Below are positions 36,187 to 54,085 of a DNA stretch of 64,000 bases, one piece after another (position 1 is the first letter of the stretch; the number at the start of each line of letters is the position of its first letter). Where the stretch lies: NCBI GenBank assembly GCA_026023565.1, contig JAPETS010000001.1, positions 1,054,001 to 1,118,000 on the forward strand. Reading direction: 5' to 3'. The position numbers and the translations under genes were made by a program. The notes beneath the pieces were generated by a model. The model did not search any database. It saw only the letters and a list, made by a program, of their open reading frames with translations, and was not told the DNA's origin. The stretch is from Cirrosporium novae-zelandiae (taxonomy: Eukaryota).

Positions 36187-36569
36187 ACGGCTTTTGGTGG
36201 TCATTTCGCGAATTTACTTACCAGTCCTATCTCCATCTCATCAACTTCAACTAAAAAAAGTGTTAAAAATCCCTTTTGCTAGCTTACGCACTTTCGCCAT
36301 TTGCCGCCATTGTGAATGGACCCGCCGACTAGTCCTAAAGCACTAGCGACTCTATCAAACCCGGCAGTCCAGACTCAACCCCAACACTGTCAAGGCTGTT
36401 TGGCTCTCCATGGTTCTATTTAGACGAGGAAGGGAGTTTCGGAGTATAAGTGAAGGCTGAGGATTTCTTTGAATAGGAGGATAACTTCAACACCTAAGCC
36501 CCGCAAGTGATTTACCGCCGTCTGCGAACGTGAACCCAACAACAACGCTCCACCCGGTGGGCAGTCCCG

Positions 36570-39500
36570 ATGGACAGCAAGACAAGGCAGTCCTCAGGAG
36601 GAAAATCATTTTTTGGTAGGAAATTGCACAAAGAGAAGGTTGTGGATGTTCATGATGGAAGGTTGGGACCAAATTCTACAAGTCCAGTCGGAAGTACAGC
36701 AGGCTCTCGATCATCGAGACATTCACATAGAGCGTCTACAACATCGGTAGACTTGAGTCTTGGAGACCCCGCAAATCTTTTGGTCACATCAATAGCCTAC
36801 GACAACGTGTCAAATGATGGCAAAACGCCTATTCCGGTGGAATATCTTCCTAAAAATGCCCAAGACGCTCGCGGTGAACCAATGCCACATCATTACAATA
36901 AGAACGGTGCCGAATTCCATCAATATCCAGCCTGGAACCCCCAAAGCCAAAACAATAACAACACTCATGTTCCAGGACCAAGGCCATCTCCAGGAACAAA
37001 TATAACCATGGCTGGAAGTAATAGTGGTGACCGAGGCGCAAGATTACAACAATGGGGTCGCTCCGGAAGTTCTGCCAGCAATTACCATGGAACTGGAAAT
37101 TATAATTCATATTCTACAGCTGATTCGTCAACGAATCCACGTCTATCATTTGATCAACAGAGTATTGCTTCTACAATGTCTTCGCAAACACGAGGGTCTA
37201 GTATTTTCTCTTCCGATAATTCGTCGAGAACTCTTGCGCCCTCACCAACATTTGAAAATAAAAATATCTCCTCCCCATCGTCTTCATCCGGCCGTCATCA
37301 GCAATACTTGCACAATGGCTGGCCAACTGCTCCACCAACCACATTCAACTCGACCACTTCATTCACTCCTGAAGGGTTTAATCTCCAGAAGCCGTCAGAT
37401 GATCGTGTCATCAATGAACAGTTTCTTGCTCTTATGGCCAAGAGAGGTTGGGCCAACCTCCCCGAGCAAGCAAGACGGCAGATGTCAGCTTATCCCGCAT
37501 CAAAGAAGTGGACCTTAGTATATCAGGACAGGTTAGCGGAATGGCAAGGGGAACAGAAACGGCGACAGCATGCAAGGCAAACATACGGCCAAGCAAATGG
37601 GCATGCAGGAATTCTAGCAAGAGCAGATGAGGAAGGAAGCCCCGAGTGGTATGTTAAGCTTATTCACGACGAATCGATCACATCAAAGCAACTTCAGAGC
37701 TTGAGTGTTAGTTTAAGAACTCAGCCTATCAACTGGGTGAAATCGTTTGTTGAAGCGCAAGGTCAAGTTGCTTTGACGAATGTTCTCATGAAACTCAACC
37801 GCCGCCAAGCATCTGGTCCTGCCCCAGCATCTAGCAATTCAAGCGACAAAGACTTGGATCGTGAATATGATATAGTCAAATGTCTCAAAGCCCTGATGAA
37901 CAACAACTGGGGTGCCAACGATGCTTTAGCACACCAACAAGTGATTGTGTCTTTGGCTACATCTTTAATATCGCCTCGTTTGACAACGCGAAAACTTGTC
38001 AGCGATGTCTTGACATTTTTAGCCCATTGGGGCGAAGGCCAGGGGCACTTGAAGGTTTTGCAGGCGATGGATCATGTCAAGAGTGTTCAGGGAGAGAATG
38101 GTCGATTCGATGCTTGGATGCGTATCGTCGAGGTTACAGTAGATGGCCGGGGTAAAATGGGGAGCTTGGTGGGTGCTAGCGAAGAACTCCGGAGTGGGGG
38201 GATTGGAATGGAAAACCTCCTTATGGAATATGCTTTGGCATCCCTATTCTTGGTCAACATGATTATAGACGCCCCGGAACGAGATCTGCAGCTACGATGC
38301 CATATCCGGGCCCAATTTATATCATGTGGGATCAAACGTATACTGACGAAGATGGAAGCGTTCCAATATGATCCAATTGACAAGCAAATTGAACGTTATC
38401 GGGAAAACGAGGCTATTGATTACGAAGATCTCCTCCAGCGTGAGAACAGCAGCATCAAGGATAGCATTGAAGGAGAAGTCAAAGACCTCAATGACCCTGC
38501 CCAGATAGTCGATGCCATCATGACAAAAATCCAAGGCAGTAGGTCGCAAGATTATTTCCTATCTGCTATGCAGCACTTGCTCCTGATCCGGGATAATGAC
38601 GGAGAAGATCGATTAAGAATGTTCCAATTGGTTGACGCAATGCTTAGCTATGTTGCAATGGATCGCAGACTCCCTGACCTAGATTTGAAGCAAAGTTTGA
38701 ATTTCACTGTACAAAGCCTTTTGGACAAACTACATACAGATTCAGAAGCTCGACAAGCCCTCGATGAAGCCACCGAGGCTCGGCGAATTGCCGATTCGGC
38801 AATGGCCGAACGGGATGAAATGAGAGCCCAGGTTGAATTAGGTGCGGATGGTCTTGTTAGCAAGCTCAAGAAACAATTGGATGAACAAGCCAATATCATT
38901 GAACTCCAGAATCGACAAAACGATGCTCTCAAGGCTGAGCTGGCAGAAATGCAACGAGTCCGAGCCCAGGAACTTCAGCGAAATGAGCTGGAAACCCGTG
39001 AATTATATCTTATGCTTCGGGATGCTCAAGATGTTGCTGCTTCCCATGCTAATAAACGCGGCCAAGAAGGGCTAGCTGTTTCGGATCCAGCACAAATGAA
39101 GGGAATTCTTGATCGGCAAAAGTTGATGGAGAGACTCGAAATGCAATTGGAACGGGCAAAAACTCAATGCAAGTTAGAGGGCAAAGTTTGGCAACAGGCT
39201 GGCCCCTCGGATCGACTACGTGAATTGCGGGAACAAATGGATGGGAATGAACAGGAGCTCGAGTTTGAGGAAATTACTCGGCGAAATCTTGTTACCAGCA
39301 CCCTTGGCAGCGTCTCTCGTCCGACTCGTGGACCTCGAAGAGCTGCGGCTGATACCTTAGATGATAACGAAGGAGAGGAAGAAAGTGTTCTCTATGAGAA
39401 ACCCCGCATCGTCGAAATAGGTAAACGGCCACGAATGAACCCAGAGCAGGCAACGGGTCTCCTTGGAGAGATTGCATCTAAGATCAAGAAATATGATGCT

Positions 39501-41989
39501 AGTGACGATGAGGATATGGAAGGAGATGGTGTTACTACTGGACCCTCTCATCCTAGTGTTGAGTCCGAAGCGCCAAAGACTCCGGAAGACGGAGGGTCTC
39601 CGAAGACCACAGAAAGCTTTGATGGACCTCCGCCTCCGCCTCCGCCCCCACTCCCTGGTGTAGCCGGCGGTATGCCGGGATTTTCCGGTGCTCCCCCTCC
39701 ACCCCCACCACCACTTCCTGCTGGGCCGGGGATTATGCCGGGATTTACCAGTGGGCCCCCTCCGCCTCCACCGCCTCCACCGCCTCCACCGCCTCCTGGA
39801 ATGTCCGCATTATCACCTATGCCAGGATTTGGGAGCGGTGCTCCTCCACCTCCTCCACTCCCAGGAGCCGGTCCTTTCATTCCTATGGGAGCCGGCCCAC
39901 CACCTCCTCCGCCTCCAGGAGCACCACCATTGCCGGGTGCTAGGGTAGGCGGATACTTGCCTCATGGTGTGATAGCGCCAACAACTTCGATTGGCCTGCC
40001 ATTTATTCGTCCTAGAAAGAAGCTTAAGGCGTTGCATTGGGAGAAGGTCGATACTCCTCAAGTCACAGTGTGGGCGACTCATGCACCTACCCATGAAGCT
40101 AAGGAGGAGAAGTATGCGGAGTTGTCGAGGAAAGGTGTGCTCGATGAAGTTGAGAAGCTTTTCTTGGCTAAAGAAGTTAAGAAAATTGGGACTAGCAGTG
40201 GTAAAAAGAATGATAAGAAGCAGCTTATCTCTAACGACTTAAGAAAAACCTTCCAAATATCCATGGCTAAATTTTCTCAAATTTCGGTCGAAGATGTTGT
40301 TCGAATGATTATACACTGTGATAAGGAAGTCCTAGATAATACAGTTGTCATGGAGTTCTTGCAAAGAGATGATCTTTGCACAATCCCTGAAAATGCGGCC
40401 AAACTCATGGCGCCGTATAGTAAAGATTGGACAGGCCCAGATGCACTTCAAACTCCTCGAGAACAAGACCCCAATGAGCTTACTCGTGAAGATCAAATAT
40501 ATCTCCATACAGCATATGAGCTGCATCACTATTGGAAATCCAGAATACGTGCTCTAGCTTTGACAAGGTCTTTCGAGCCCGAATACGACGATATAACGAA
40601 TAAGCTCCAGCAAGTTGTTGCAGTTTCAGAGTCAATCCGGGATTCAGTTGCTCTCATGAATGTCCTTGGTCTTATCTTGGATATCGGTAATTATATGAAC
40701 GACTCAAACAAGCAAGCAGCTGGATTCAAGCTTAGTTCCCTTGCTCGCCTAGGAATGGTCAAAGATGACAAGAACCAATCTACATTCGCTGATCTTGTTG
40801 AAAGGATTGTTCGAAACCAATATTCGGAGTGGGAAGGTTTCGTGGATGAAATATCTGGAGTAGTTGCAGCGCAAAAGCTCAACGTTGATCAACTGCAAGT
40901 TGATGCAAAGAAGTACATTGAGAATATTAAGAATATACAGGCTTCCCTTGATTCGGGCAATCTCAGCGATCCAAAGAAATTTCACCCTGAAGATAGAGTC
41001 AGCCAGGTAGTACAACGCTCCATGAAAGATGCAAGGCGAAAAGCAGAGCAGATGCAGCTGTATCTGGAAGAAATGTCACGAACATACGAGGATATAATGA
41101 CCTTCTATGGCGAAGACCCGACAGATGAAAATGGTCGAAGAGACTTCTTTGCGAAGTTAGCTGCATTCGTGACGGAATGGAAGGTAAGCGACATGTACTG
41201 GCCGGCTTTCGTGGAAATTGCTAATCATAGTATCAGAAATCGAAAGAAAAGAACATCACGATTGAAGAAACGCGTCGCCGGAATGAAGCGTCGATGGCTC
41301 GCAAACGGATTAATCCAACAATCGCCAACGGTCTAAACCATATGGATAGTCCCATATCACCTTCCGCTAGCGGAGCAATGGACTCCTTACTTGAAAAACT
41401 CAGAGCTGCCGCTCCTCAGACTCGCGACCAGCGAGATAGGCGTCGTCGTGCTAGACTCAAGGAGCGCCATCAAGTTCGGGTGGCTTCTGGTCAGAAAATT
41501 CCCGACATTGAAATTAAACAAGATGTTGAGGAGGCCAAGTCGGATTTACTTAGTCCTAAAAGCAATGCTAGCGAGACGTCGGCAACCACTACTGAAGGAC
41601 ATTCAGAAGGCGAAGACATTGCAGATAGAGCTGCCAGCATGCTTCAAGGGCTCAGAGGCGATGGTGATAGCCCTGGAGATAACGTCGGAAGGGAAGATAG
41701 CATCCGAGTTAGACGGCGCAGGGAGAGTGCCGACGATGAAAGAAGGAATCGTCGACGAAGAAGAGGAGGTGCTGCAGGACCAGATAGAGAACATGCCTTA
41801 ACACCGCCTAAAGAAGAAGAAGATGCTTCCTCGGAAGTACAAGGAGACGAGAAGCCGGATGTGAAGGACAATTTATCCATTGAGGTAACCAAGGACAGCG
41901 ATGCACCACCAATGATATCTCCCACTGCCCTCGTGTCTCCGCCTCCTGAGGAAGGGTCAGAACAACGGCCAGTTGAGATACCCGACTGA
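36570..41989 (+). CDS. sepA: Formin SepA/Bni1 (GBD/FH3, polyproline FH1, FH2, DAD); intron 41184-41236
   Basis: SLSVSLRTQPINWV, polyproline tracts, KKLKALHWEKV, LDIGNYMND...GFKLSSL, DAD motif AMDSLLEKLRAA after the intron. Confidence 0.95.
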
Positions 41990-42550: not shown

Positions 42551-44860
42551 ATGACATCGCTTATTCGCAGAGCGATTGGCATAAGCAGCTATGGAATCCC
42601 TTTACGGATAATTGATACAAGCAGGTCAAGGATTCTTGCACCTGGTTCCTATTTACAACTTCAACTTGTCCCTTCCAGAGTCCGAACACTGGGGAGCTTC
42701 TCTCCTAGCCGAGGCAACGCTGTAAATAGTTCAAGGAATTCCAATCCAGGTGCCTTGAACAATTGGTCCAATAATACTATTTACGCTCTGTCTACAGCAC
42801 CTGGGAGGGCTGCCATCGCTGTAATCAGAATTTCCGGTCTGGCATGTACAGCAGTGAGTGGACCTTCCAATTGACTTCCTACTGGCCACCCACCCATCAC
42901 CTAGGTAACTGATGAACTCCCTCAGATTTACGACGCACTATGTCCAAGTCATCCTCTTCCTCACCCACGACATGCCTCTCTACGCACACTCTACACACCC
43001 GGGCTTCCCCCTTCGCGAGATTCCATTCTCGACCCAGGCTCGCTAGTTCTTTTCTTCCCCGCACCACAAACCGTTACCGGTGAAGATGTCCTCGAACTTC
43101 ATATCCACGGCGGCCCCGCAATCGTCAAGGCCGTCCTAGCTGCAATTCCAACAGTCTCGACCCTTATTGCGCAACAACACGAGGAGATATCCACCCATAG
43201 TATTCGGTACGCCGAAGCCGGTGAATTCACCCGCCGCGCCTTCCTGAACGACAGGATGGATCTACCACAGATCGAAGCGTTGGGGGAAACACTCGCAGCC
43301 GAGACGGAACAGCAGCGTAAACTCTCCATCCGGGGTGCCAACAGTGCTCTCGCAACGAGATACGAACAATGGCGGCAACAGCTCCTCCACGCCCGAGGTG
43401 AGCTAGAAGCCCTGATAGACTTTTCCGAAGACCAGAATTTCGAAGAGTCGGGCCAGGAATTGCTGAAGTCGGTTAGAACCCAGCTTGTTTTGCTGCTGGA
43501 GCAGCTTCGACTGCATGTGAAAAATTCCGAGAGGGGTGAGCTGCTTCGTCATGGAGTTAGTATCGCGCTTCTGGGTGCGCCAAATGCAGGGAAGAGCTCC
43601 TTGTTGAATCAGATTGTGGGCAGGGAGGCTGCCATCGTGAGCATCGAGGAGGGCACCACGAGGGATATTGTCGATGTCAATGTCGACATTGGGGGATTCT
43701 ACTGTCGTCTGGGAGATATGGCTGGATTAAGAACCGATGTCTCCGCACCCGCCGCACCAGCAGTTCAGGCCGCAAACCCCACTGGCAATCGTAACGCCAA
43801 AATCGGAATCGTAGAAAAAGAGGGAATAAAACGCGCCAAGCAGCGAGCCCTAGAATCTGACCTCATCATCGCCGTCTTATCCATAGAGCCCGCGGACCAC
43901 CAAACTAATAACTCTAACTCTAACTCTAACTCCGATCCTGATCCTGGTGACTCTGACTGTGACGGCCGTGACGGCTATGTGGTAAGGCCCGAGCCGGAAG
44001 TCCTAGCCGCCGCCCTCGCGTGCATCAAGGCTGGAAAGCGAGTCCTTTGGGTTGTTAACAAAATTGATCGATTAGTTATTGTGGGAGACCAGGAACGGAC
44101 GAGGGAGAAGGCTGAGGGGGAGGCGAGACGGCAAGCCTTAGGTATCCTTAGGGAGTATGGGATTGTGGAAGCCTTGACCGGGCTAGAAGAAGAAGGAGGA
44201 AAAGAAAGAGAAAGAGAAGAAGAAAACCCTACAAAAAGCCACAAAACCATGCCCATCCTAACAATTTCCTGCAAAGAAGCAGCCCAGACCTCCTCAACCC
44301 CCACCCCATCTCAACCATCCCAACCATCACAACCCCAACCCCACGACCCCGGAAATCTCCACAAGCTCCTAACCCTAATAATCAAAACCCTCACCTCCAT
44401 TTCCTCTCCCATCTCCACCTCATTCACCACCCCCACACCCACACCCCCAACAACCATAAACTTCCACTATTATCAAGAATCCCTAAACGTAACCTACCGC
44501 CAACGTCAGAACCTCGAGCTCTGTATTGGATATCTGGAGGATTATTTACACTTGATGATGGGGGATGGGGAGGTGGAAGGGGTTGAAGGGACAGCGGGTG
44601 TTAATGTTGACATTGCGGCGGCAGCGGAGAATTTGAGATTTGCGGCTAGGTGTTTGGGGAGAATTAATGGGAGGGTTGGCGGTGGTGGGGATATAGGAGA
44701 GGGGGGGGATGTGGAGGAGGTTTTGGGAGTGGTTTTTGAGAAGTGAGTTTATATATATATATTTTTCGTTTTTTTTCACATCTTTTTCTTTGGTGTTTGA
44801 GACGTCTTCTTGGAGAATGGCTAATATGGAATGAAATATAGGTTTTGCGTTGGTAAATAA
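42551..44860 (+). CDS. MSS1: Mitochondrial tRNA-modification GTPase Mss1/MnmE; introns 42854-42925 and 44743-44841
   Basis: TIYALSTAPGRAAIAVIRISG, TVTGEDVLELHIHGG, GEFTRRAFLN, GAPNAGKSS, GTTRD, DMAG, NKID; final micro-exon restores C-terminal FCVGK. Confidence 0.93.
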
Positions 44861-45367
44861 AATCTGGATATTCTATTATTGGTATCGGTCATGTCATGGA
44901 TCTCAGGGCTAAATTGCTTTTTTCCCAATTCTGTTGTTACAGTCTAAAGTCTAAATCCAATCAATGTGTTGGTGTTGATACAAAAATCTCTAAATCGCTA
45001 TCACATCAAAGCAAAAGAAAAAAAAAGAGAAAAAAACACCTTACTCCTCGCCATTTTACCCGCTAAAAATTCAAACGATCGTCATCTTTTCACTTCTTGG
45101 TCTCGTACAAGTCGCAATGCATATGCTTGAAAACAATAAAATAACAAATGGGTACAAAAAAATCCTTCAAATTTCATTTCCCCCTGACTCCCCTGTCCCT
45201 CCGATCCGGAATCGGAGGTTTCATTCGAGTCCGAGTCTGAGTTTTCCGTCTTCGGCGTTTCCAATCCATCATGTGTGGTGAAGGTCTGGCGAAGGTGGGC
45301 GTGTATGTGGTTTTGATGATTTGTTCAGCTGAAGTTCAGCTGGTTGGTTGGCTGTTTGGTTGCAACT

Positions 45368-45391
45368 TTAGTTGTATCCACCTCGGCCCAT
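45368..45391 (-). CDS. Micro-ORF copy 4: MGRGGYN*
   Basis: ATG GGC CGA GGT GGA TAC AAC TAA; context caaccATGG. Confidence 0.7.
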   Translation of the reverse strand: MGRGGYN

Positions 45392-45462
45392 GGTTGGTGA
45401 TTATGAGATGAGATAGGTAGTTGGTTGGTGGGCGGATTTATATGGAAGAAATTGTGCGCTCT

Positions 45463-45486
45463 TTAGTTGTATCCGCCTCGACCCAT
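45463..45486 (-). CDS. Micro-ORF copy 3: MGRGGYN*
   Basis: ATG GGT CGA GGC GGA TAC AAC TAA; context caaaaATGG. Confidence 0.7.
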   Translation of the reverse strand: MGRGGYN

Positions 45487-45553
45487 TTTTGGTGATGATG
45501 AGATAGATAGTTGATTGGTGGACTTCGAGGAAAATATGCGTGTTTTCTTTTTC

Positions 45554-45577
45554 TTAGTTGTATCCACCTCGGCCTAT
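45554..45577 (-). other. Micro-ORF copy 2 with ATA in place of ATG: (I/M)GRGGYN*
   Basis: ATA GGC CGA GGT GGA TAC AAC TAA; near-cognate start or decayed copy. Confidence 0.55.
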
Positions 45578-45984
45578 TTTTAAAATATGTGATTGGATAG
45601 TTAATGGGTTTGTGTCCAGGGAAATTTGTCTTTTTGGTGGGCTGCTGGGAAGCCTGAGATCGTGACTTGCTGAAAGAAGAAATAGAAAACAAGGAGAGGA
45701 GGAAGAGGAAGAAGAAAATATGAGATGAAAAAGTCGTTAAAAAAGTCGATTTTTTGGATGCGCTAGAATGAGAAGGTAGAATAGGATGGTAACAAGACGA
45801 AAACGCTTTTTTTCGCTAATGCTTTTCCCTTGCCGTGAAAATGCTTCGAGACGAAATAATGGTAGGAGGAGGAAAAACTGGTCTTTGACGAAGTTGTGAT
45901 TTATGCAAAAATTTGAAAATCGATGGAAATAGAAATTTCAACGAGACGATTGCTGACGATGGTGATGATATCGAAGAAAACAAC

Positions 45985-46008
45985 TTAATTGTAGCCGCCG
46001 CGACCCAT
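45985..46008 (-). CDS. Micro-ORF copy 1: MGRGGYN*
   Basis: ATG GGT CGC GGC GGC TAC AAT TAA; strong fungal start context ttcacaATGG. Confidence 0.7.
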   Translation of the reverse strand: MGRGGYN

Positions 46009-46277
46009 TGTGAATTTGATGCTTTGGTAATGTGAGTTTGTTGTAGTGGAAGTGGAAATGGTGGTGGTGATGATAGCTGCTTGTTTGGTGGTTGAAGCCG
46101 ATGGAGGAGGTGGTCGATAAGATTATAAGATTAAGACTTGATTTGTAGTAGTAGTAATGGTGAAGAACTCCAATAAATGCAACTAGAGAGGAATGAGAAA
46201 GAAGAAGAAGAAGATTATGAAAATGCTCTGAAATGTTGATGGAGAGAAAAAAAATTCTAAGCAATTGCGAGTGCCTG

Positions 46278-46286
46278 ATATATATA
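46278..46286 (-). promoter_or_regulatory. Candidate TATA box of the micro-ORF transcript
   Basis: TATATATAT followed on the minus strand by a CT-rich leader about 270 nt before copy 1. Confidence 0.55.
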
Positions 46287-46687
46287 CCTGAAATAGATGT
46301 CTGTACCTGCAGGTAAGTAGCGAACGACTCTACCACTGGTGATGTTGTTCCACATCTCAAGATGCTACATAGCAACGGAGATAGAGCATCGGAGTGTCTA
46401 CTCGACTCACCTCGAAAGAGCAGGAGGTACTCAACTCAGCCCTATGACACAATTAGATAGGTATCAACTAAGCCTCACGCACCTTGGTGACTGCGGTTCG
46501 GTGGCCCCCAAGAAGGGGTCAGGTAAGAGAAATGAAAAAGACTAGAGATAAAGAGTAATACATTGAAAGAACCAACTGGAAAGACGAGCCAGAGGATGGG
46601 GAGTTGGACTTGAATGGTGGTACGAGTGGTACGAGGGGCATGGTTGCAGGGTTAAATCGGAAAGAGGTAGAATTCCGACAATGTAGA

Positions 46688-46711
46688 ATGCAGATGCAGA
46701 TGCAGATGCAG
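46688..46711. repeat. (ATGCAG)4 microsatellite
   Basis: Seen directly. Confidence 0.9.
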
Positions 46712-47142
46712 ATGCGGGATGCGATGGATGTATGCATGCAAGTAGGCGAGTTGGGAAGTTGAGAAGTACTCATCAATTAGTCGCGGGTCCCTGAAGGTAA
46801 GAAGAGGTTTTTCAGCCTTAAACAAGGAAAGGGAACTAAGGGATTCGGTAGCGAAGTTTACCTTTGGGATTTCCCTTGGTGTACCCTGTACAGTACAATA
46901 CTCGAGATCGGGGGGGAGGAGTCATGTTGGCTGAGGCTCTCTCTCTCTCTCTCTCTTGGGGGCTGCGGTCACCAGAGATCAGCCCCCACTGGTTAGAGCG
47001 GTTAGAGAGTCAAGTAATTAGGAGATCGGGTCTTTGATAACTTCCCAATTAGGACGGAGGTGATGTTGGTGCCTCAGCTACGAGGGAATTCACCTGCATC
47101 TGAGGGATGAGGCGCAACAATTTCCCAGGGTTCTATTCAGTC

Positions 47143-47185: not shown

Positions 47186-48740
47186 ACTGTAACCTGAAGT
47201 TTCGACTCAGGTACAGTACATTTTGTTGCTCATTGTTGCTTACGATAGATTTAGGGTTGAAGTTTGAACCCTTGGCTGGTGAACGATGTGGCTGGCCCAG
47301 ACCTCCCAAGTACACTTCTGTTAGCTCTTACTTCTCACGGCATCTTAGAAATCTTAGCAATCTGTCAAGTTTCAACCTTTTTTTTTTAATTTTGTTTAAT
47401 TTTGTTTAATTTTTGTTTACCAAACTTTGCTGACTACATACATACATATCTGACCTTGATCTTCTCTTTTCTTCATGCGATATACACCAGCCTACAGCAT
47501 TGCTATTGCTACTGCTACTGCTACTGCTACTGCTACTGTCATTGCCATGTATGTTAGAGTAACAATATATGCAGGTCAAGCCATGGCATGTTATTACTCA
47601 TTTTCACATTGAGACAAATATTTCCTGAGGCGGTGCATCGTAATGGTAAGGCATATCTCCAACACAGGCAGGAAATATTTAGATATCCAAGAAAGGATTC
47701 GGTTCCAAGTATCAAAAACAAAACAAGAAAAACTCGAGGTTGAACCAAAGTTCCCCCAGAGTTCGGCAATTAAAAAAAATAATTAAAACAAAATCTCAAA
47801 ATCTCAAAAAAAAAAAAAAAAAAGTTTCTATTTTTATTTTTAGATTTTTTCCAACTTTGGGGGGATTGGCGACAATGTTGACACACCTTTCCTTTGCCGA
47901 TGGATTCACTTCCCGGTTGTAGGGCTGACCAACCGTCAATCGTATGAAGAACCAAAGGGTCTACCAAAAGGGTCCATCCAATCCCTCCCATCCATCCCAC
48001 AGTGATCAAGACACTAAGCTTCTTACCCTCGCAATCTTTCCCTGTTCCAAAAAACATCGTCACTCGTTGTACAACTCTCCCACTCCCACTTGACCTGTGA
48101 CTCGATTCCTCTCCAGTAACTGTACTGAGTACTTCAGATCCGATCGATGGGAAATGGATAAACGGCCATCGTAACCTTCTTTCTTCCCTACTCCCCTCTA
48201 TCCCGAGATCAAAATACTTACCCGATCCTCTTCCCTTTGTACTGTACCTCTAAATCCAGTCGGGTCCAGAAAAACTGCTTAGAAATTACACCCCACCATC
48301 AATGTTCCTATTAACACCGTCAAATCATCGTCAGAGAAGAAAATGCAATAGCTGGCCTGCTTATTCCATTTCAACGTCAAATCTGTACATACGCATCTAT
48401 TTCATCCATCTATGACTCCAAAGTGCTGCCTACAGCGACCCTGATCTACAAGTCACACGGCACTAGCAACGTCGGTTTCCAAATCACGTATTACAAATCG
48501 TTTATTTAGTCGTTCATTAATCTATTCGTCCCTTGCCAAGCTTCATCCATCCGAGCCTCATCCGTCCATCTCCCACTCTATCAAGAATGAATCACTATCC
48601 TACCTCATATGGGGGAAAAAATAACCCCAAAACGCCTGGAACGCCTTGTTCTCGGAGAATATTCCTTAAAGGTTGCCCTGCATATAGATGACCCAGGGGG
48701 CAAATTATTGGCCTCAAGGGGCGGGAACAACGCCCTAGCT

Positions 48741-51700
48741 TTAGCCCTGCAACAGCTTCGCCATAAGGTTCTCAAAATATTGCATAACAAAGTTCTCTCT
48801 GTAGATAAGGTTAGTGCTACTCAATATTCAAATAAAAAATGCAATGGCGGGGTGGAACAAACGTGTAGAAGCTGTGACTCGAGCTGTGATCTGCTACAAT
48901 ATTGTGCGCCAGTTCATGACATAACGTCACAAACCAATAGACCGTTGCCTGAGCCTTGTCCCCCTGTTGGACTTTCTGAAGATGCAGCTGCTCAAAGAAC
49001 CGGTAGTTGCAAAAAATACTTCCTGATGAATTGAAGGCTATGGCAGGGCCCTTGAGATCGTAGAAGATGTGCAAGCTATCACGCTTCAGAGCAAATATAT
49101 CTGCACATTCAAGCAAAATATTACCAAAGGAATTTATTCCAGAAGCTTGACCTGAGAGAAAAGTTGAGCGCCCATCTTGACCAATACTTTTCTCAACAAA
49201 AATCTTGAGCCCGGAAGAAGAGCTAGCAAGAAACGAAAGGTCATGGGCATTCCTTTCATCACAATATGAACTGGTCTCTTGCACCGTGTTAGTTTCCCCA
49301 GGAGTATACAGGTTTGAAGAACCATGAGGACGAGACTTTTGGATAGCAGAAATGAGATTTTGACGAAGTTGATGTGGTGCTGTTACAGGCTGTTCAACAT
49401 TATGTATGCCAAGAGCATTGTTCTGTGAGGTATTAGGATCATTAGCCGTATAAGGCGGAGGGCTGTCAACTCCCGATGGGCCCCCAAGTAAAGACCGCAT
49501 TTGGTCAGACTGAGGTTGACTATCATCCAACCCAAGACGTTTCGTAATATTTTGAAATAGTCCTCTAATATTCCGCCGTGGTTCTTGCTCAGCTGGCAAG
49601 ATGGTATCCGAAGAACCCCTTGGTCCACCGGTCATCCGGGGAGGAGAATCTGGGAAATTTCCCGGCATAGCCTCTGTTTCTTGTAATTTTGTTTCCCGTA
49701 CAGATTGCCTTTGGGCTTGACTCTCATTCCATTGACGTTCTTGCTCGGCAAGTTGCTTACGCTCTTCCTCTAGATGTGCTCGGCGATTCTCTTCTGCAAT
49801 GCGATTCTCCGCTTCTCGGCGTCGTAAAATACGTGTGACATTGTAACCCCTTGCGCTCAGTATCTTCAAATCGGTCGTGAGAAGAGATTCTAACGTAAGG
49901 GCGGAATGCTCTGTTGGTTTCTTCATCAATATATGGACGACTGCTTGACTAACTTGGTATAAGTCTGGTGATGAAGTGATACTCAAAACCCAACCAGTTC
50001 GAGTAGGATTGCGAGTGATCACAGCGGTGCGCTGCTCCTTGTGCACAAGCCCATATTTCTTCAATGTACGACGGTAGGATATCTCGCGGACCGCCTTGAG
50101 TGACAAATGTCCTTCCAACCATTTAGCATTATGCTTAATCATATCTGGTGATATTCCATGGAGGAAGAGCCTAGAACGTTCAAGGACTCGTTTTTGGAGA
50201 CGCATAGAAACAGTCTGGTCCCCAGTCGGAGTGCCCACATGGGCAGTCTCCTCAACCAATGAATTCAGTGACGGAGTCCCAAGACTAGCGTAGAATGTCT
50301 CAAAAGCCCCTTCCTGGGGAGCTGCTAATAGCTTTTCTTTGAACAGTTGAAAGCCCACATAGTCATCAGCAATGATAATTTCGTTGGCGCTAGCAAGCTG
50401 CCATTCCAAGATTGGTGCAAGATTTTCATCATCATCATCGTCATCGTCAGTGGTATTTGCTTGAGACTTTGACACTACCTCAGCTGTGGCAGGCACCTCT
50501 CTACTAGCAAGAAGAAATCTAGAACTTTGCATAGCTCGAAACAAATCTTTTTGTTTTTTTATATCTGCAAGAATTTCTGCAATCCTCCTTAATAGATCAA
50601 GGTATCTGTCTGTACTCTTGCATGTTGAATAAACCCTAGCTGGCTCTCGAACCATCAATCGCGCAATTTCTATTGTGCTAGGCTCATGTTTTGATCCACA
50701 CTTCAAGAGAAACGAGTTGCCCTCAGATCCGAAGTTAACAAATTCAAAAATCTCTCCGAAGACCTCGCTTTCCCCAAGAAAGCATTCCGCTGGAGCTACA
50801 AAGCGTGGTGTTGACATCTTTCCCTCCGACTTCCCGTCAAATATGGGAACTATGGCAGCGCGGGTTAACCGTTCTATGTGAATTGCATGAATCTCTGCAA
50901 GGCGGCCAGAGAAATAGCCGAAGACCTCTCTTGCAATTTGCTTTGTTTTAGGAGGATCGCGAATTAACCTGAGTATACATTCTTCAATTGGAGGATTGGC
51001 TCTAATACCCAATTTTTGTGCATGGGGGTGTAGAGTTCGTTTCAAAATGTTGAAACCAAGTAAAGTGACCCCATTGTTGGTAAAAACCTGGCTTGGAGTT
51101 GAGAGTTCCTTGTCTGAACCTTCTATTGGAAGAAAGGGAGTGTTAATCCCGGACATGTCGAACGATGCATAACCATTTTGTAGATGATTGAAGAGAAAGT
51201 AAGCAAGTACGTGGTCTCTCTCTGTTGATCGTCCTTCCACTGACGCTTTATTTATGATACTGACAAGCTCGGGGACAGTCGGCTGATTCCTCAAGCCAAG
51301 AAAAGTCAAGAATTTTCCTTCTACGCTTCGAGGATTATAAACGTCAGGCCATTGAAGAATCGGTAAACCGAGATCTCGTAGGGAATCCGTAGGAGCGAAA
51401 AGCTCTTGAACAGAGTATAGTTTGTTAGCTTGGGGGTTCTGATTACCGTTTTCGGCGGGACATATTGGAGTTTTCTTTAGACGCTCAATATCGCTGTTGG
51501 GAATATCATCCCTTACAGAAGCTAGGTACTTGATCAAATCAACATGACTCCACTTGCCCTCAGAAGCTCCACTCTTCTCCCCGGAACCAGTAGGACTTGC
51601 GAGCAGACGCTCGAAAATGACACCAAGTTCAACGGTTTTCCGTACCCCCAAAGTGACGAGGAATTTATCCTTGACCCCGTTTAATCCGCTAACAGTAGGT

Positions 51701-54085
51701 AGATCATCGAACAATTTCACAGAGCTAAAATAGGCCTCAAACGGCTTCCGCATCCCAAGTTTAGTGGGTATAACTGTTCTGGTGCTAAGAGCTTCAATGA
51801 TCGATGATTTTGAAGATGGACTTAACCCGTCAAACTGCTTTGATAGTACAGGTAGCACCTGTTTGGCAAAAATGGGGTTGTCTGTGACATCCTGCTCAGC
51901 ATCAAGAGCGTTTCGGTTGGAAGAATTTTCCAGTAGCCAACGGATCCAAGGGACTACCTGTAGCTCTTGCCAACCAAGTGCTTTATAATGCTTCTCCTGT
52001 AGAAATTTGGTGAATGCAAATGGCATTGTATTAGGAGGCACGGGTAGTTCGGGTGGAATTTTGTTCGCGTTGATGAAACACTCTATTTGGCTAACCATTA
52101 GAGGCTGAGGAGGCAACTTCGATCTCGGTATTCCTTCTGCAACAGTCACACTTAGTAAAGATTGAACGCTGAACTTATCAAGCTCATTTTTGTAAGCTTT
52201 AGGCCCAATCCATTTGATAAATTCCTCAAGCTGTTCAGCAGTCAGCAGTCTTGCCTCCAAGGCCTTCTTGATATCAGAGACAGAGATTTCGGTGATGACG
52301 CCAAAATCAATCAGTTTATTTATAAAATCTCGAGCACCCTCTCTTAGCTTCTCCGGGAGAAGAGGGACACCATCAACGAAACTCAGCTTTTCGGAAGCAA
52401 CCCGGATCTCGTTACTTGGTAGTACGCCATTTGAAGATAGTAAATCAATAGACTCACTTGCACCGCAGAGCCAGAAGGTTTCTTCGATTTTTTGAGAAAT
52501 CTGGGGCAAGGGTGTAGACTCTTCGAAATTAAAATGGTTTAGGATGTTCAGAGCTTCAGGAATTACACCCTCTATGTCCTTTTCGTCGAGCTTCCGCCGA
52601 CCTTCGTTCTGAAGTTGATGAGAAAGCTTACTTTGGATGTTGGACATCTCTATTGACCAGGCAACCCTGCAGGTGATACCGACGGCTCTTAAAAGCTCTA
52701 CATTCCAAGTTCGTACCCACCGAGCATTCAGATCTATACTTTCCCTCTCCACGGTTGGTATCAATGATGGGATAGAAATATGCGCCTTTATTCCGGTGGT
52801 TTGTTGGGTAGGAAAACCTATGAAGATTCTACCTGATTTTGAAGGAAGGACTTTTGTGAATATAACCGGGGATTTTTTGGTGGAGCTCGGTTCGTTTTCT
52901 TCGAAAGAAGAAGTCAAAATTGCAACCTTGGTGGTTTTAGGAGGTGGCTTTTTGGTTGCGCGTTCAAGCTCCTGTTTAAAAGATGAAGTTACCGAAGTCT
53001 GGAGAGAGGCTGTGGTAGTATATAAAAAGGCGATAGCTGTTGAAAGGTCTGTCAGATTTTCGATTGGTTTAGGGCTGCTGTTTTGGTCTTTCCTTGAACG
53101 GTCTCCCAAACTATGCGAGGAGTTCGCAGTCAGCCTTGAAAAAAATGATCGTAATGATTGCCCAGCGTTACTAGCATTCCCACTATCAGCAGAGGGATTT
53201 GGGGTCTCTGATTTCCAGTCTACAGCGTTCATCCAACTCGCATCAAGTTGAGCAATCGCACGATGGACTGCAGTTACTTTCATCATCCCCTCGGCAGTTG
53301 TGGTATGAAGACCCCGAGGAATAGAAACTTGTGTACTTGGGGCTTCTTTTTTTGATAAACTGAGCAGTTTCCAATCATCAAGCCACAACTCAATCTCTTC
53401 CAAGGCGACAAAGGTAAGGCTACTAGCAAGAAATTGGCATAGTGGTAGCAGGCCTGGTATGGGCGAAGTTGTGTTTCTGTAATCCAAGACAAAATTTGTA
53501 TTTGGATTATTATCTTCCTCAGAAAGCACAAGACGTCTTGTGAAGAGTGAGTTTCCCTTCCAGTAGAAAGCTAGGGCCTCTCTTCCAGAGCTGACAAAGG
53601 GCTCCTCGCAATCTGCAAACACACTGTAGAAGCCGACACCGAAAGCGCCTATTTTTGTCTCGTCGGGATTTCCTTCTGCGATTCTTTTAAGCCTCGACCA
53701 ATCGTCGTGACCAAATGGGTGGCCATTATTCGAAATGACTAGTCGCTTGATGGTATGGTATGTTATTGTATGCTTTAACTGGGCAGAGGGATCGGTTGAT
53801 TGGGGCACAGGCACGCTCGGAGATGGTATTGACTCGAACTTTACAGTGACTTTCGAGGCCCCCGCGTCTGCAGCGTTTTGAAGAAGTTCTCGTAGTACAG
53901 TCCTGTATAAATCCAGCCTGTCAGCATACTACCCCAGTAGCCTAAGGACGATAACATTACCATTCTCCTGAATATCTTGCTAAAACCTTATCGATTAGAG
54001 CACGAGTATTTACAGTAACAGCCTCCTCATCCGCAGTTGAGTCAAGGGTACGAGCCTTTAGCTTGTTGAAATCAATAGTTGTCAT
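48741..54085 (-). CDS. Large protein with N-terminal GHKL/sacsin-like ATPase, central DUF3684-like region and C-terminal HExxH motif; introns 53903-53960 and 48799-48862
   Basis: Spliced ALIDKVLARYSGEWTVLRELLQNAADA, NNG, KIGAFGVGFYSVF (GHKL boxes); C-terminal CHELAHN; last exon ENFVMQYFENLMAKLLQG*. Confidence 0.85.

Follow-up and report, generated by a model that had tools for sequence, protein, structure and literature searches.

In insects, the tarsal-less/polished rice/mille-pattes gene (tal/pri/mlpt) yields one mRNA on which several very short open reading frames (ORFs) encode near-identical peptides with the core LDPTGXY. Very short ORFs are also known as peptide-dependent regulatory upstream ORFs (uORFs), among them that of the fungal arginine attenuator peptide (AAP) and the six-codon uORF of S-adenosylmethionine decarboxylase (AdoMetDC), and at GCN4 scanning resumes after the very short uORF1. 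Alpha-factor type pheromones and the Kex2-processed precursors of ribosomally synthesized and post-translationally modified peptides (RiPPs) of the ustiloxin class carry many peptide copies per gene. Here we analyse a candidate gene of small ORFs (sORFs) in a stretch of 64,000 nucleotides (nt) from the fungus Cirrosporium novae-zelandiae (assembly GCA_026023565.1, contig JAPETS010000001.1, positions 1,054,001 to 1,118,000), hereafter the window. Its minus strand carries, at 45368–46008, four 24-nt units related to a seven-codon ORF for the peptide MGRGGYN. We regard it as likely that these units belong to a deeply conserved, unannotated polycistronic micropeptide gene, translated by scanning and reinitiation.

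With tal/pri/mlpt this gene has in common its tandem sORFs, a conservation that bears on the peptide and not on the spacers, a copy number that varies by lineage, and the failure of gene finders to see either gene. At least two tandem sORFs encode one peptide and only that peptide is conserved, as in a gene of the tal/pri kind. The LDPTGXY core that would point to homology is absent; GRGGYN is spelled by 69 of the 72 units collected below, and the gene is best described as an analogue of tal/pri/mlpt rather than a family member. It also differs in size (7 codons against 11–32), in its hosts (fungi against arthropods) and in having some units split by an intron or fused; and while the insect peptides have a known target pathway, translation and function are here predicted from sequence.

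Unit 1 (45985–46008) reads ATG GGT CGC GGC GGC TAC AAT TAA, unit 3 (45463–45486) ATG GGT CGA GGC GGA TAC AAC TAA and unit 4 (45368–45391) ATG GGC CGA GGT GGA TAC AAC TAA, each encoding MGRGGYN and a stop. Unit 2 (45554–45577), ATA GGC CGA GGT GGA TAC AAC TAA, has neither an ATG of its own nor an in-frame ATG upstream. An earlier note on this DNA had described these four units, three with ATG and one with ATA, and re-reading the window returned the same sequences at the same coordinates. It also bore out that each of the five variable sites between ATG and TAA is the third position of a codon, and that the TAA stop, the A at −3 and the G at +4 are present in every one of the four. A degenerate version of the 24-nt unit, allowing up to two mismatches, has exactly four matches in the window, where 100 dinucleotide shuffles gave an expectation of 0.00 and a maximum of 0. 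Two other statements of that note need amending. The flanks, said to diverge strongly, have done so only in part for copies 2 to 4, which share an upstream block and are spaced 91–95 nt apart; these three are therefore a local tandem duplication, and from the second codon onwards (21 nt) unit 2 equals unit 4. The interval, said to hold no credible long ORF, is spanned by stop-to-stop frames of 104–165 amino acids (aa), yet these contain no ATG, and on the minus strand between 46355 and 45272 the three unit starts are the sole ATGs. Unit 2 is probably either a recently inactivated copy or one with a weak near-cognate start; its ATA may also be a base error of the assembly, the window deriving from a metagenome-assembled genome. 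Tandem Repeats Finder leaves the four-unit array in the window unreported, because the copies lie too far apart and their spacers are too diverged.

A scan of metagenome contigs with the strict 24-nt pattern, requiring one perfect unit per locus, returned 57 loci (given here by L numbers), 19 of which hold two or three exact matches 80–280 nt apart. In the control, a scan of bacterial and archaeal genomes totalling 596 Gb, the strict pattern matched only three times, each time singly. These three prokaryote matches (L058–L060) come from metagenome-assembled genomes labelled Subdoligranulum, Acutalibacteraceae and Gemmiger, and possibly represent one conserved gene end. At 95% identity the 57 loci fall into 34 clusters, and 25 groups, the window included, have flanks beyond blastn alignment. 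One cluster (L021/L045) was dropped as a chance match: its motif is the C-terminus of a 327-aa ORF on a contig of 59–60% GC, with no second unit and without MSS1, the convergent neighbour discussed below. The non-redundant set thus comprises 33 metagenome loci and the window, 34 loci in all; L021 remained among the 35 representatives used for the paralogue test and the profile, to which it contributed no paralogue hit and one profile unit. Each locus of the set has one to four units, and at least two are found in 25 of the 34.

Since the strict scan itself forces one synonymous-only unit per locus, selection was assessed with a test blind to codon position, which accepted within each of the 35 representatives any 24-mer that differs by at most eight mismatches from the literal unit of that locus. 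It gave 39 hits on the same strand against one on the opposite strand, one of the 39 (L051 position 2988, EGLGGYDD) being probably spurious. The 173 mismatches are distributed over the first, second and third codon positions as 19/23/131, and over the six motif codons as 3/4/108, so that 108 of 115 fall on third positions. Four-fold sites differ in 20–29 of the 39 comparisons, which is near saturation. An information profile of 72 units gives the same picture, with 1.8–2.0 bits at the first two codon positions, 0.26–0.60 bit at four-fold third positions and 0.02–0.4 bit in the flanks. Of the 72 units of the 34 loci, the three departing from GRGGYN read GRDGYN (two) and GRGDYN (one), and across loci arginine is encoded by both CGN and AGR codons. 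Met, motif and stop are exact in 56 of the 72; the 66 that end on a stop use TAA 57 times, TAG six times and TGA three times, and a purine directly follows the stop in 64 of the 72 profiled units. The proposal of the earlier note that selection acts on the peptide rather than on the DNA is in line with these counts, and the outcome it had named as contrary, non-synonymous changes as frequent as synonymous ones in homologous loci, was looked for and did not occur. The units are under purifying selection at the codon level.

Further support comes from an intron. At first sight six clusters hold no more than one unit. In every one of them the ORF that starts at the first ATG past unit 1 runs into acidic residues and Gly-Arg-Gly, and there meets an apparent stop or change of frame. 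In five of them (L005, L012/L039, L011, L025 and L054) the break falls on a 5' splice site of the canonical fungal type (GTAAGT, GTACGT or GTAAGC), and the predicted spliceosomal intron of 54–61 nt has a branch site CTAAC, CTGAC or CTAAT and a 3' CAG. The downstream exon reads N-GGN-TAY-AAY, and splicing would give ...DD-GRGGYN followed by a stop or by x-Pro-x-x-stop, the motif and frame of the split unit being regained only upon this predicted splicing. The split position is identical throughout, after nucleotide 8 of the motif. The sixth cluster, L010/L026, is built alike except that His replaces Tyr, a GRGGHN variant noted on visual inspection, and together these split units add six loci to those with more than one unit. 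A search of the opposite strand at all split positions found no intron-split motif. The seeming introns of L043 and the window, which have split position 7, were rejected as artefacts that join two adjacent units. The intron speaks for transcription in the direction proposed, for handling of the transcript as an mRNA and for selection on a translated product.

These results bear directly on the idea that the units are a DNA or RNA element, such as a protein-binding site or a structured repeat, or else a neutral recent repeat that mimics an ORF. The recent 91–95-nt duplication of window copies 2–4, with its partly similar flanks, is what such a repeat would look like. An element of this kind is however not expected to show three-base periodicity, to use CGN and AGR alike, to vary almost freely at four-fold sites, to keep an ATG and a stop in 56 of 72 units, or to encode the motif still when split by an intron; Rfam has no match to the locus. 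Because of the third-position bias of the paralogues and the intron-split units, we consider this explanation effectively refuted.

The sequence around the units is consistent with a message read by scanning ribosomes. A putative TATA box, TATATATA (46279–46286, minus strand), has TATAWA at 46286 and 46284, 278 and 276 nt upstream of unit 1. The earlier note was right to place a TATA box before copy 1 and wrong to see none between copies, TATAAA occurring at 45442 between copies 3 and 4. Among the non-redundant loci, 22 of 34 have TATAWA 201–400 nt upstream of the first unit, and none has it at −1000 to −401 (27–30 loci reaching that far upstream). The window also holds a perfect microsatellite, (ATGCAG)x4.7, at 46688–46715, some 400 nt ahead of the putative box. 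The leader described in that note as CT-rich is indeed ATG-free, G-poor and rich in pyrimidines; it extends over 46009–46352 on the minus strand, the nearest upstream ATG being at 46355, and would contain the 5' untranslated region, with transcription presumably starting somewhere past the TATA box. The 34 loci share this composition on the sense strand: G falls to 0.06–0.17 over the last ~250 nt before the first unit, in a pyrimidine-rich context, stays low in the spacers (0.12) and recovers past the last unit.

The depletion of ATG is more striking still. Leader and spacers of the window (891 nt) contain no ATG against 8.2 expected, a state reached by 0.05% of 2000 shuffles. In the 200-nt leaders of the 34 loci there are three ATGs against 55.9 expected, while five permutations of A, T and G occur 21–98 times; the ATG-free leader has a median length of 306 nt and is 200 nt or longer in 30 of 33 loci. 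The spacers hold 15 ATGs against 32.7 expected, of which 11 are in-frame starts of N-extended GRGGYN peptides and four are stray. The depletion ends with the last unit: beyond it ATGs number 92 against 64.7 expected, and the first one is met at a median of 75 nt. This pattern would be expected if scanning ribosomes must reach the AUG of each unit in turn. Spacer length is a multiple of three in 13 of 38 cases, the chance level, which rules out readthrough of stop codons as a way of joining units. The gaps from stop to ATG between units go down to 55 nt.

A simple course of events could account for these features. A TATA promoter would drive one RNA polymerase II mRNA of ~1 kb, with a long leader free of AUG, poor in G and presumably little structured, whose coding content would amount to one to four tiny ORFs, each for Met-Gly-Arg-Gly-Gly-Tyr-Asn. 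Ribosomes would scan the leader, translate the first seven-codon ORF and come to termination at a strong signal, TAA plus a purine. After so short an ORF scanning would resume and lead to reinitiation 55–400 nt further on, so that each mRNA would give several copies of the peptide. Methionine is normally removed before glycine by methionine aminopeptidase, and the mature product would probably be the hexapeptide GRGGYN. GCN4 and cpc-1 offer a parallel, with very short ORFs, AUG-free spacers in the range of ~55–400 nt and the resumed scanning proposed here; the GCN4 uORFs are regulatory and encode unconserved peptides, whereas the short ORFs of this locus would themselves be the conserved product.

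The motif is also found in longer contexts. The last unit is often extended at its N-terminus by residues rich in Asp, Glu and Ser, 1–13 of them in unspliced forms and 1–16 overall, and C-extended forms such as ...GRGGYN-DVHDDDE or GRGGYN-xP.. keep the motif as well. In five loci (L009, L013, L027, L038 and L044) two units are fused as MGRGGYN-x(6-25)-GRGGYN. In L009 and L013 units 2 and 3 form a two-motif ORF of 42–45 aa while unit 1 stays separate; the fusions of the three others are shorter. A protein search with the L009 ORF led to Thermoascus crustaceus, where a hypothetical protein of 59 aa contains three motifs. The profile of the five fused forms, run against 1.84 billion representatives, matched 22 proteins at E ≤0.001, among them an annotated hypothetical protein each from Aspergillus wentii (75 aa) and A. 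homomorphus (80 aa), besides some ten two-motif proteins of 37–64 aa. In the Eurotiales, units are fused into small annotated proteins, and the fused forms overall measure 37–80 aa and carry two or three motifs. The alignment of these proteins is invariant only in the motifs, in a Pro two residues past the first motif, and in Ser-Met-Gln before and Asp-Val after the last one. As the motif is kept in N-extended, split and fused forms, it would seem to work with or without free ends.

Larger proteins (given by P numbers) with 5–15 copies of GRGGYN, often as GRGGYN-x-Pro, were also drawn by the profile: P0245 and P0253 from Hypoxylon species (15 and 5 copies), P0248 from the plant Drosera rotundifolia, an MBOAT_2 protein with 8 copies, and P0254, P0255 and P0258; two repeat proteins besides those of Hypoxylon and Drosera measure 658 and 274 aa. 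One Hypoxylon repeat protein also contains GRDGYN, a variant found among the sORFs, and in P0255 Met still precedes four of eight motifs. These proteins may be expansions of the sORF motif or coincidences of repeat growth; they were not counted as members, a chance hexamer within a repeat being equally apt to be drawn by the profile.

The fused and repeat-rich GRGGYN(xP) proteins raise the thought that the short units are decaying remnants of an ancestral multi-motif protein and that only the fused forms, those of the Eurotiales and the Hypoxylon repeat proteins, are functional; in some loci the codons past the unit stop do resemble the x-Pro of the long forms. Decay would hardly have left every unit with a separate stop and an ATG in favourable context, and this in 25 groups whose flanks cannot be aligned, nor leaders and spacers that remain depleted of ATG. 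The spacers, in frame in 13 of 38 cases only, keep no residual reading frame, and the Eurotiales-like loci retain a separate canonical first unit. We hold this origin to be very improbable.

Since fused multi-motif ORFs exist, the separate units presumably share one transcript. The suggestion of the earlier note that one mRNA carries several copies of the peptide fits these fusions, the ATG depletion of leader and spacers and the intron-split unit; from the fused forms, the ATG depletion, the positioned TATA box and the gaps as short as 55 nt we infer a single transcript. The parallel with tal/pri drawn in that note is likewise in keeping with the comparisons, and its proposal as a whole withstood every comparative test applied.

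Downstream of the units lies MSS1/MnmE (42905–44746, plus strand), a mitochondrial tRNA-modification GTPase with the domains TrmE_N, MnmE_helical and MMR_HSR1, which is convergent to the sORF gene. Downstream sequence of 1500 nt or more is available for 21 clusters, and 20 of these have a convergent MSS1, the exception being the false-positive cluster; MSS1 is additionally present in L013, and three more clusters have short matches. The last unit and the MSS1 stop are 56–1389 nt apart. As for the pattern search with synteny check proposed in the earlier note, clustered, synonymously varying units do stand next to MSS1, while the DUF3684 gene also named there is not syntenic. When other loci are compared with the intergenic region of the window, nothing is conserved but the units.

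The first ATG past the last unit of the window opens a 32-codon ORF rich in Arg and Lys (45174–45272, minus strand), which may be a further sORF of the array transcript. Nine Pleosporales-like loci (L002, L006, L007, L024, L031, L035, L043, L051 and L052) have a conserved downstream sORF of 34–48 aa with the basic motif T-L-R-K-x-R-x-E-R-W-R, in which Arg, Lys and Glu codons vary synonymously. The downstream ORFs of the window and L042 have in common a Trp followed by an Arg/Lys cluster; homology of the window ORF to the Pleosporales-like sORFs is not established, and downstream ATG-ORFs cluster within orders only. The transcript may thus encode a second kind of micropeptide.

The convergent neighbour and the downstream sORF bear on what we see as the main rival, namely that the units are cis-acting regulatory sORFs. 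Nascent GRGGYN with its TAA would then stall or tune ribosomes as they terminate, and so control how a downstream ORF is translated, how the RNA decays or how convergent transcription enters MSS1; once released, the peptide would be functionless. The invariant residues, the preference for TAA (57/66) and for a following purine (64/72), the conserved MSS1 linkage across such small gaps, and the sORF opened by the first ATG past the last unit in the Pleosporales-like loci could all be read in this way. AAP and the AdoMetDC uORF likewise are very short, conserve their amino acid sequence over their nucleotides and depend on their stop codon. Such uORFs, however, precede a conserved main ORF, and the GRGGYN array has none: no downstream ORF is conserved above the level of the order, the intergenic region of the window matches the others in its units only, and in several lineages the downstream 'main' ORF is itself a GRGGYN peptide. 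The motif moreover persists away from the stop, in fused and C-extended forms, and behind N-terminal extensions of 1–16 residues, neither of which is predicted by a mechanism acting in the ribosomal tunnel or at termination. Both the cis mechanism and the targets it would have appear unlikely to us.

A different possibility is that the peptide leaves the cell or is enzymatically modified, acting as an exported signal or as a precursor. Many copies of one short peptide are typical of secreted signals, the TATA-type promoter suggests regulated, high-level expression, and the fused forms of the Eurotiales type superficially resemble the repeat precursors of pheromones and RiPPs, although most lineages have separate ORFs instead. 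P0259, a 109-aa database ORF with two GRGGYN and one GLGGYN, has a hydrophobic N-terminus ahead of its motifs. It may be an over-extended gene call, as P0246 is, whose N-terminus turns out to be the in-frame translation of the L013 leader. The earlier note had seen no likeness to a pheromone or KEX2 repeat precursor, and we concur: units and fused forms have no signal peptide, dibasic site or CaaX box, and neither KR nor RR precedes the motif, a single QK in L027 and L038 being the nearest approach. Clustered tailoring or transport genes are not found among the window neighbours (a formin, MSS1 and a DUF3684/sacsin-like gene), and there is no conserved upstream neighbour. We therefore judge an exported or modified product to be rather improbable.

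The retention of the motif with N- and C-terminal extensions and within fused proteins makes an action in trans most likely for the sORF peptide. GRGGYN would bind a conserved partner as a short linear motif made of a single Arg and a single Tyr on a Gly spacer, copy number or valency setting the dose. On balance we lean towards an ancient polycistronic micropeptide gene of the Pezizomycotina, the first fungal counterpart of tal/pri, whose product would be a dose-controlled ligand for a conserved cellular machine and a minimal Arg-Tyr 'sticker', reused multivalently in fused small proteins and large repeat proteins. In its single Arg-Gly-Gly followed by Tyr the peptide resembles RGG/RG low-complexity motifs; these are many degenerate repeats within large proteins, whereas here one invariant copy is the whole product. 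Readers of RGG (an importin, an arginine methyltransferase or translation factors) are possible partners, as a lead only. In Table 1 of PMC8140498, the string GRGGYN lies within a PY-type nuclear localisation signal listed for yeast Hrp1.

Several points weigh against a trans-acting polycistronic gene. Transcription, splicing, translation and the peptide itself are all read from DNA sequence, and a check for cDNA origin found a poly(A) end on none of 19 whole metagenome contigs. A free peptide of six or seven residues may be short-lived in the cytosol. The invariance is extreme, Lys never replacing Arg and Phe replacing Tyr a single time, within a large repeat protein; together with the preference for TAA plus a purine it would also suit a cis mechanism that depends on the nascent peptide or on termination. 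It is moreover conditional on the scan, which requires one perfect unit and to which lineages with a drifted or lost motif are invisible. The conserved convergent linkage to MSS1 is not explained by a peptide acting purely in trans, and window unit 2 lacks its ATG. Finally, no relative was found in Pfam, Rfam or the Protein Data Bank (PDB).

The database searches gave little else. When ten motif proteins were compared with Pfam-A, no family covered the motif: MBOAT_2 matched only the non-repeat part of the plant protein, and the matches to GRP and Topo_VI_alpha were below threshold. PDB sequences gave nothing relevant, only an irrelevant carbohydrate kinase at E 0.26, and in the ESM Atlas a single Ascomycota cluster, at 0.80, was too weak to serve as a lead. 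As for the literature, the earlier note knew of no described fungal equivalent, and a search that covered neither supplementary tables nor subscription literature found no description either. In the searchable literature, the string GRGGYN is found in five papers, none of which treats a fungal sORF. Relevant passages of a 2024 review of the hidden fungal genome (PMC11413187), of a 2019 survey of conserved fungal sORFs (PMC7394265) and of a map of untranslated regions in A. fumigatus (PMC12810187) describe no fungal polycistronic micropeptide gene. The GRGGYN gene thus appears to be undescribed so far.

If the polycistronic micropeptide gene proves real, GRGGYN would rank with the shortest free-standing ribosomal gene products known from eukaryotes, and would be a minimal peptide ligand with every residue under selection. 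The locus would provide a natural and strongly selected eukaryotic system for polycistronic translation driven by reinitiation. Its confirmation would reveal a class of fungal genes hidden from annotation pipelines, which miss it because the ORFs have only seven codons. Tryptic proteomics is expected to be blind to GRGGYN as well, cleavage after Arg leaving very short fragments, and this is a plausible reason for its having been overlooked. AUG-free leaders, variation confined to third positions and an intron that restores the motif could guide the search for similar genes. Judged from MSS1 similarity or annotated fusions, apparent carriers include Alternaria, Pyrenophora, Parastagonospora, Paecilomyces, Thermoascus and Aspergillus.

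The loci were placed taxonomically by the identity of their MSS1 fragments to named proteins among the matches returned. On this basis the closest relatives are Alternaria tenuissima (100%), A. rosae (95%), Parastagonospora nodorum (91%), Pyrenophora (87–88%), Paraphoma (85%) and Lentithecium (81%), together with Paecilomyces variotii for L013 (98–99%) and Thermoascus for L009 (79%). In T. crustaceus the GRGGYN protein (8669) and MSS1 (8670) carry adjacent locus tags, and their contigs have the same length. For several locus groups, including the intron-bearing one, the best named MSS1 among those compared reaches only ~60–70%. The MSS1 of the window equals, at 100%, an NCBI protein labelled as belonging to a metagenome-assembled genome of C. 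novae-zelandiae; outside Cirrosporium its identity is only 45–49%, with matches among named Eurotiomycetes, Dothideomycetes and Geoglossomycetes and in a lichen-forming species. Cirrosporium novae-zelandiae itself belongs to the class Xylobotryomycetes (NCBI taxonomy), and on these placements the sORF gene is present, convergent to MSS1, in at least three classes of Pezizomycotina: Xylobotryomycetes, Eurotiomycetes and Dothideomycetes.

Upstream of the sORF gene, the minus strand of the window carries a 159-aa stop-to-stop frame without Pfam match (47770–48249) and the gene of a DUF3684/sacsin-like protein of 1703 aa (48817–53928). The locus groups have no upstream gene in common, these two included. 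On the other side, the formin gene identified by domain search (36534–41336, plus strand) lies directly upstream of MSS1. One Aspergillus MSS1 homologue (P0070) is named 'cytokinesis protein sepA', which hints that the neighbourhood of formin and MSS1, or else a merged gene model, is conserved in Aspergillus.

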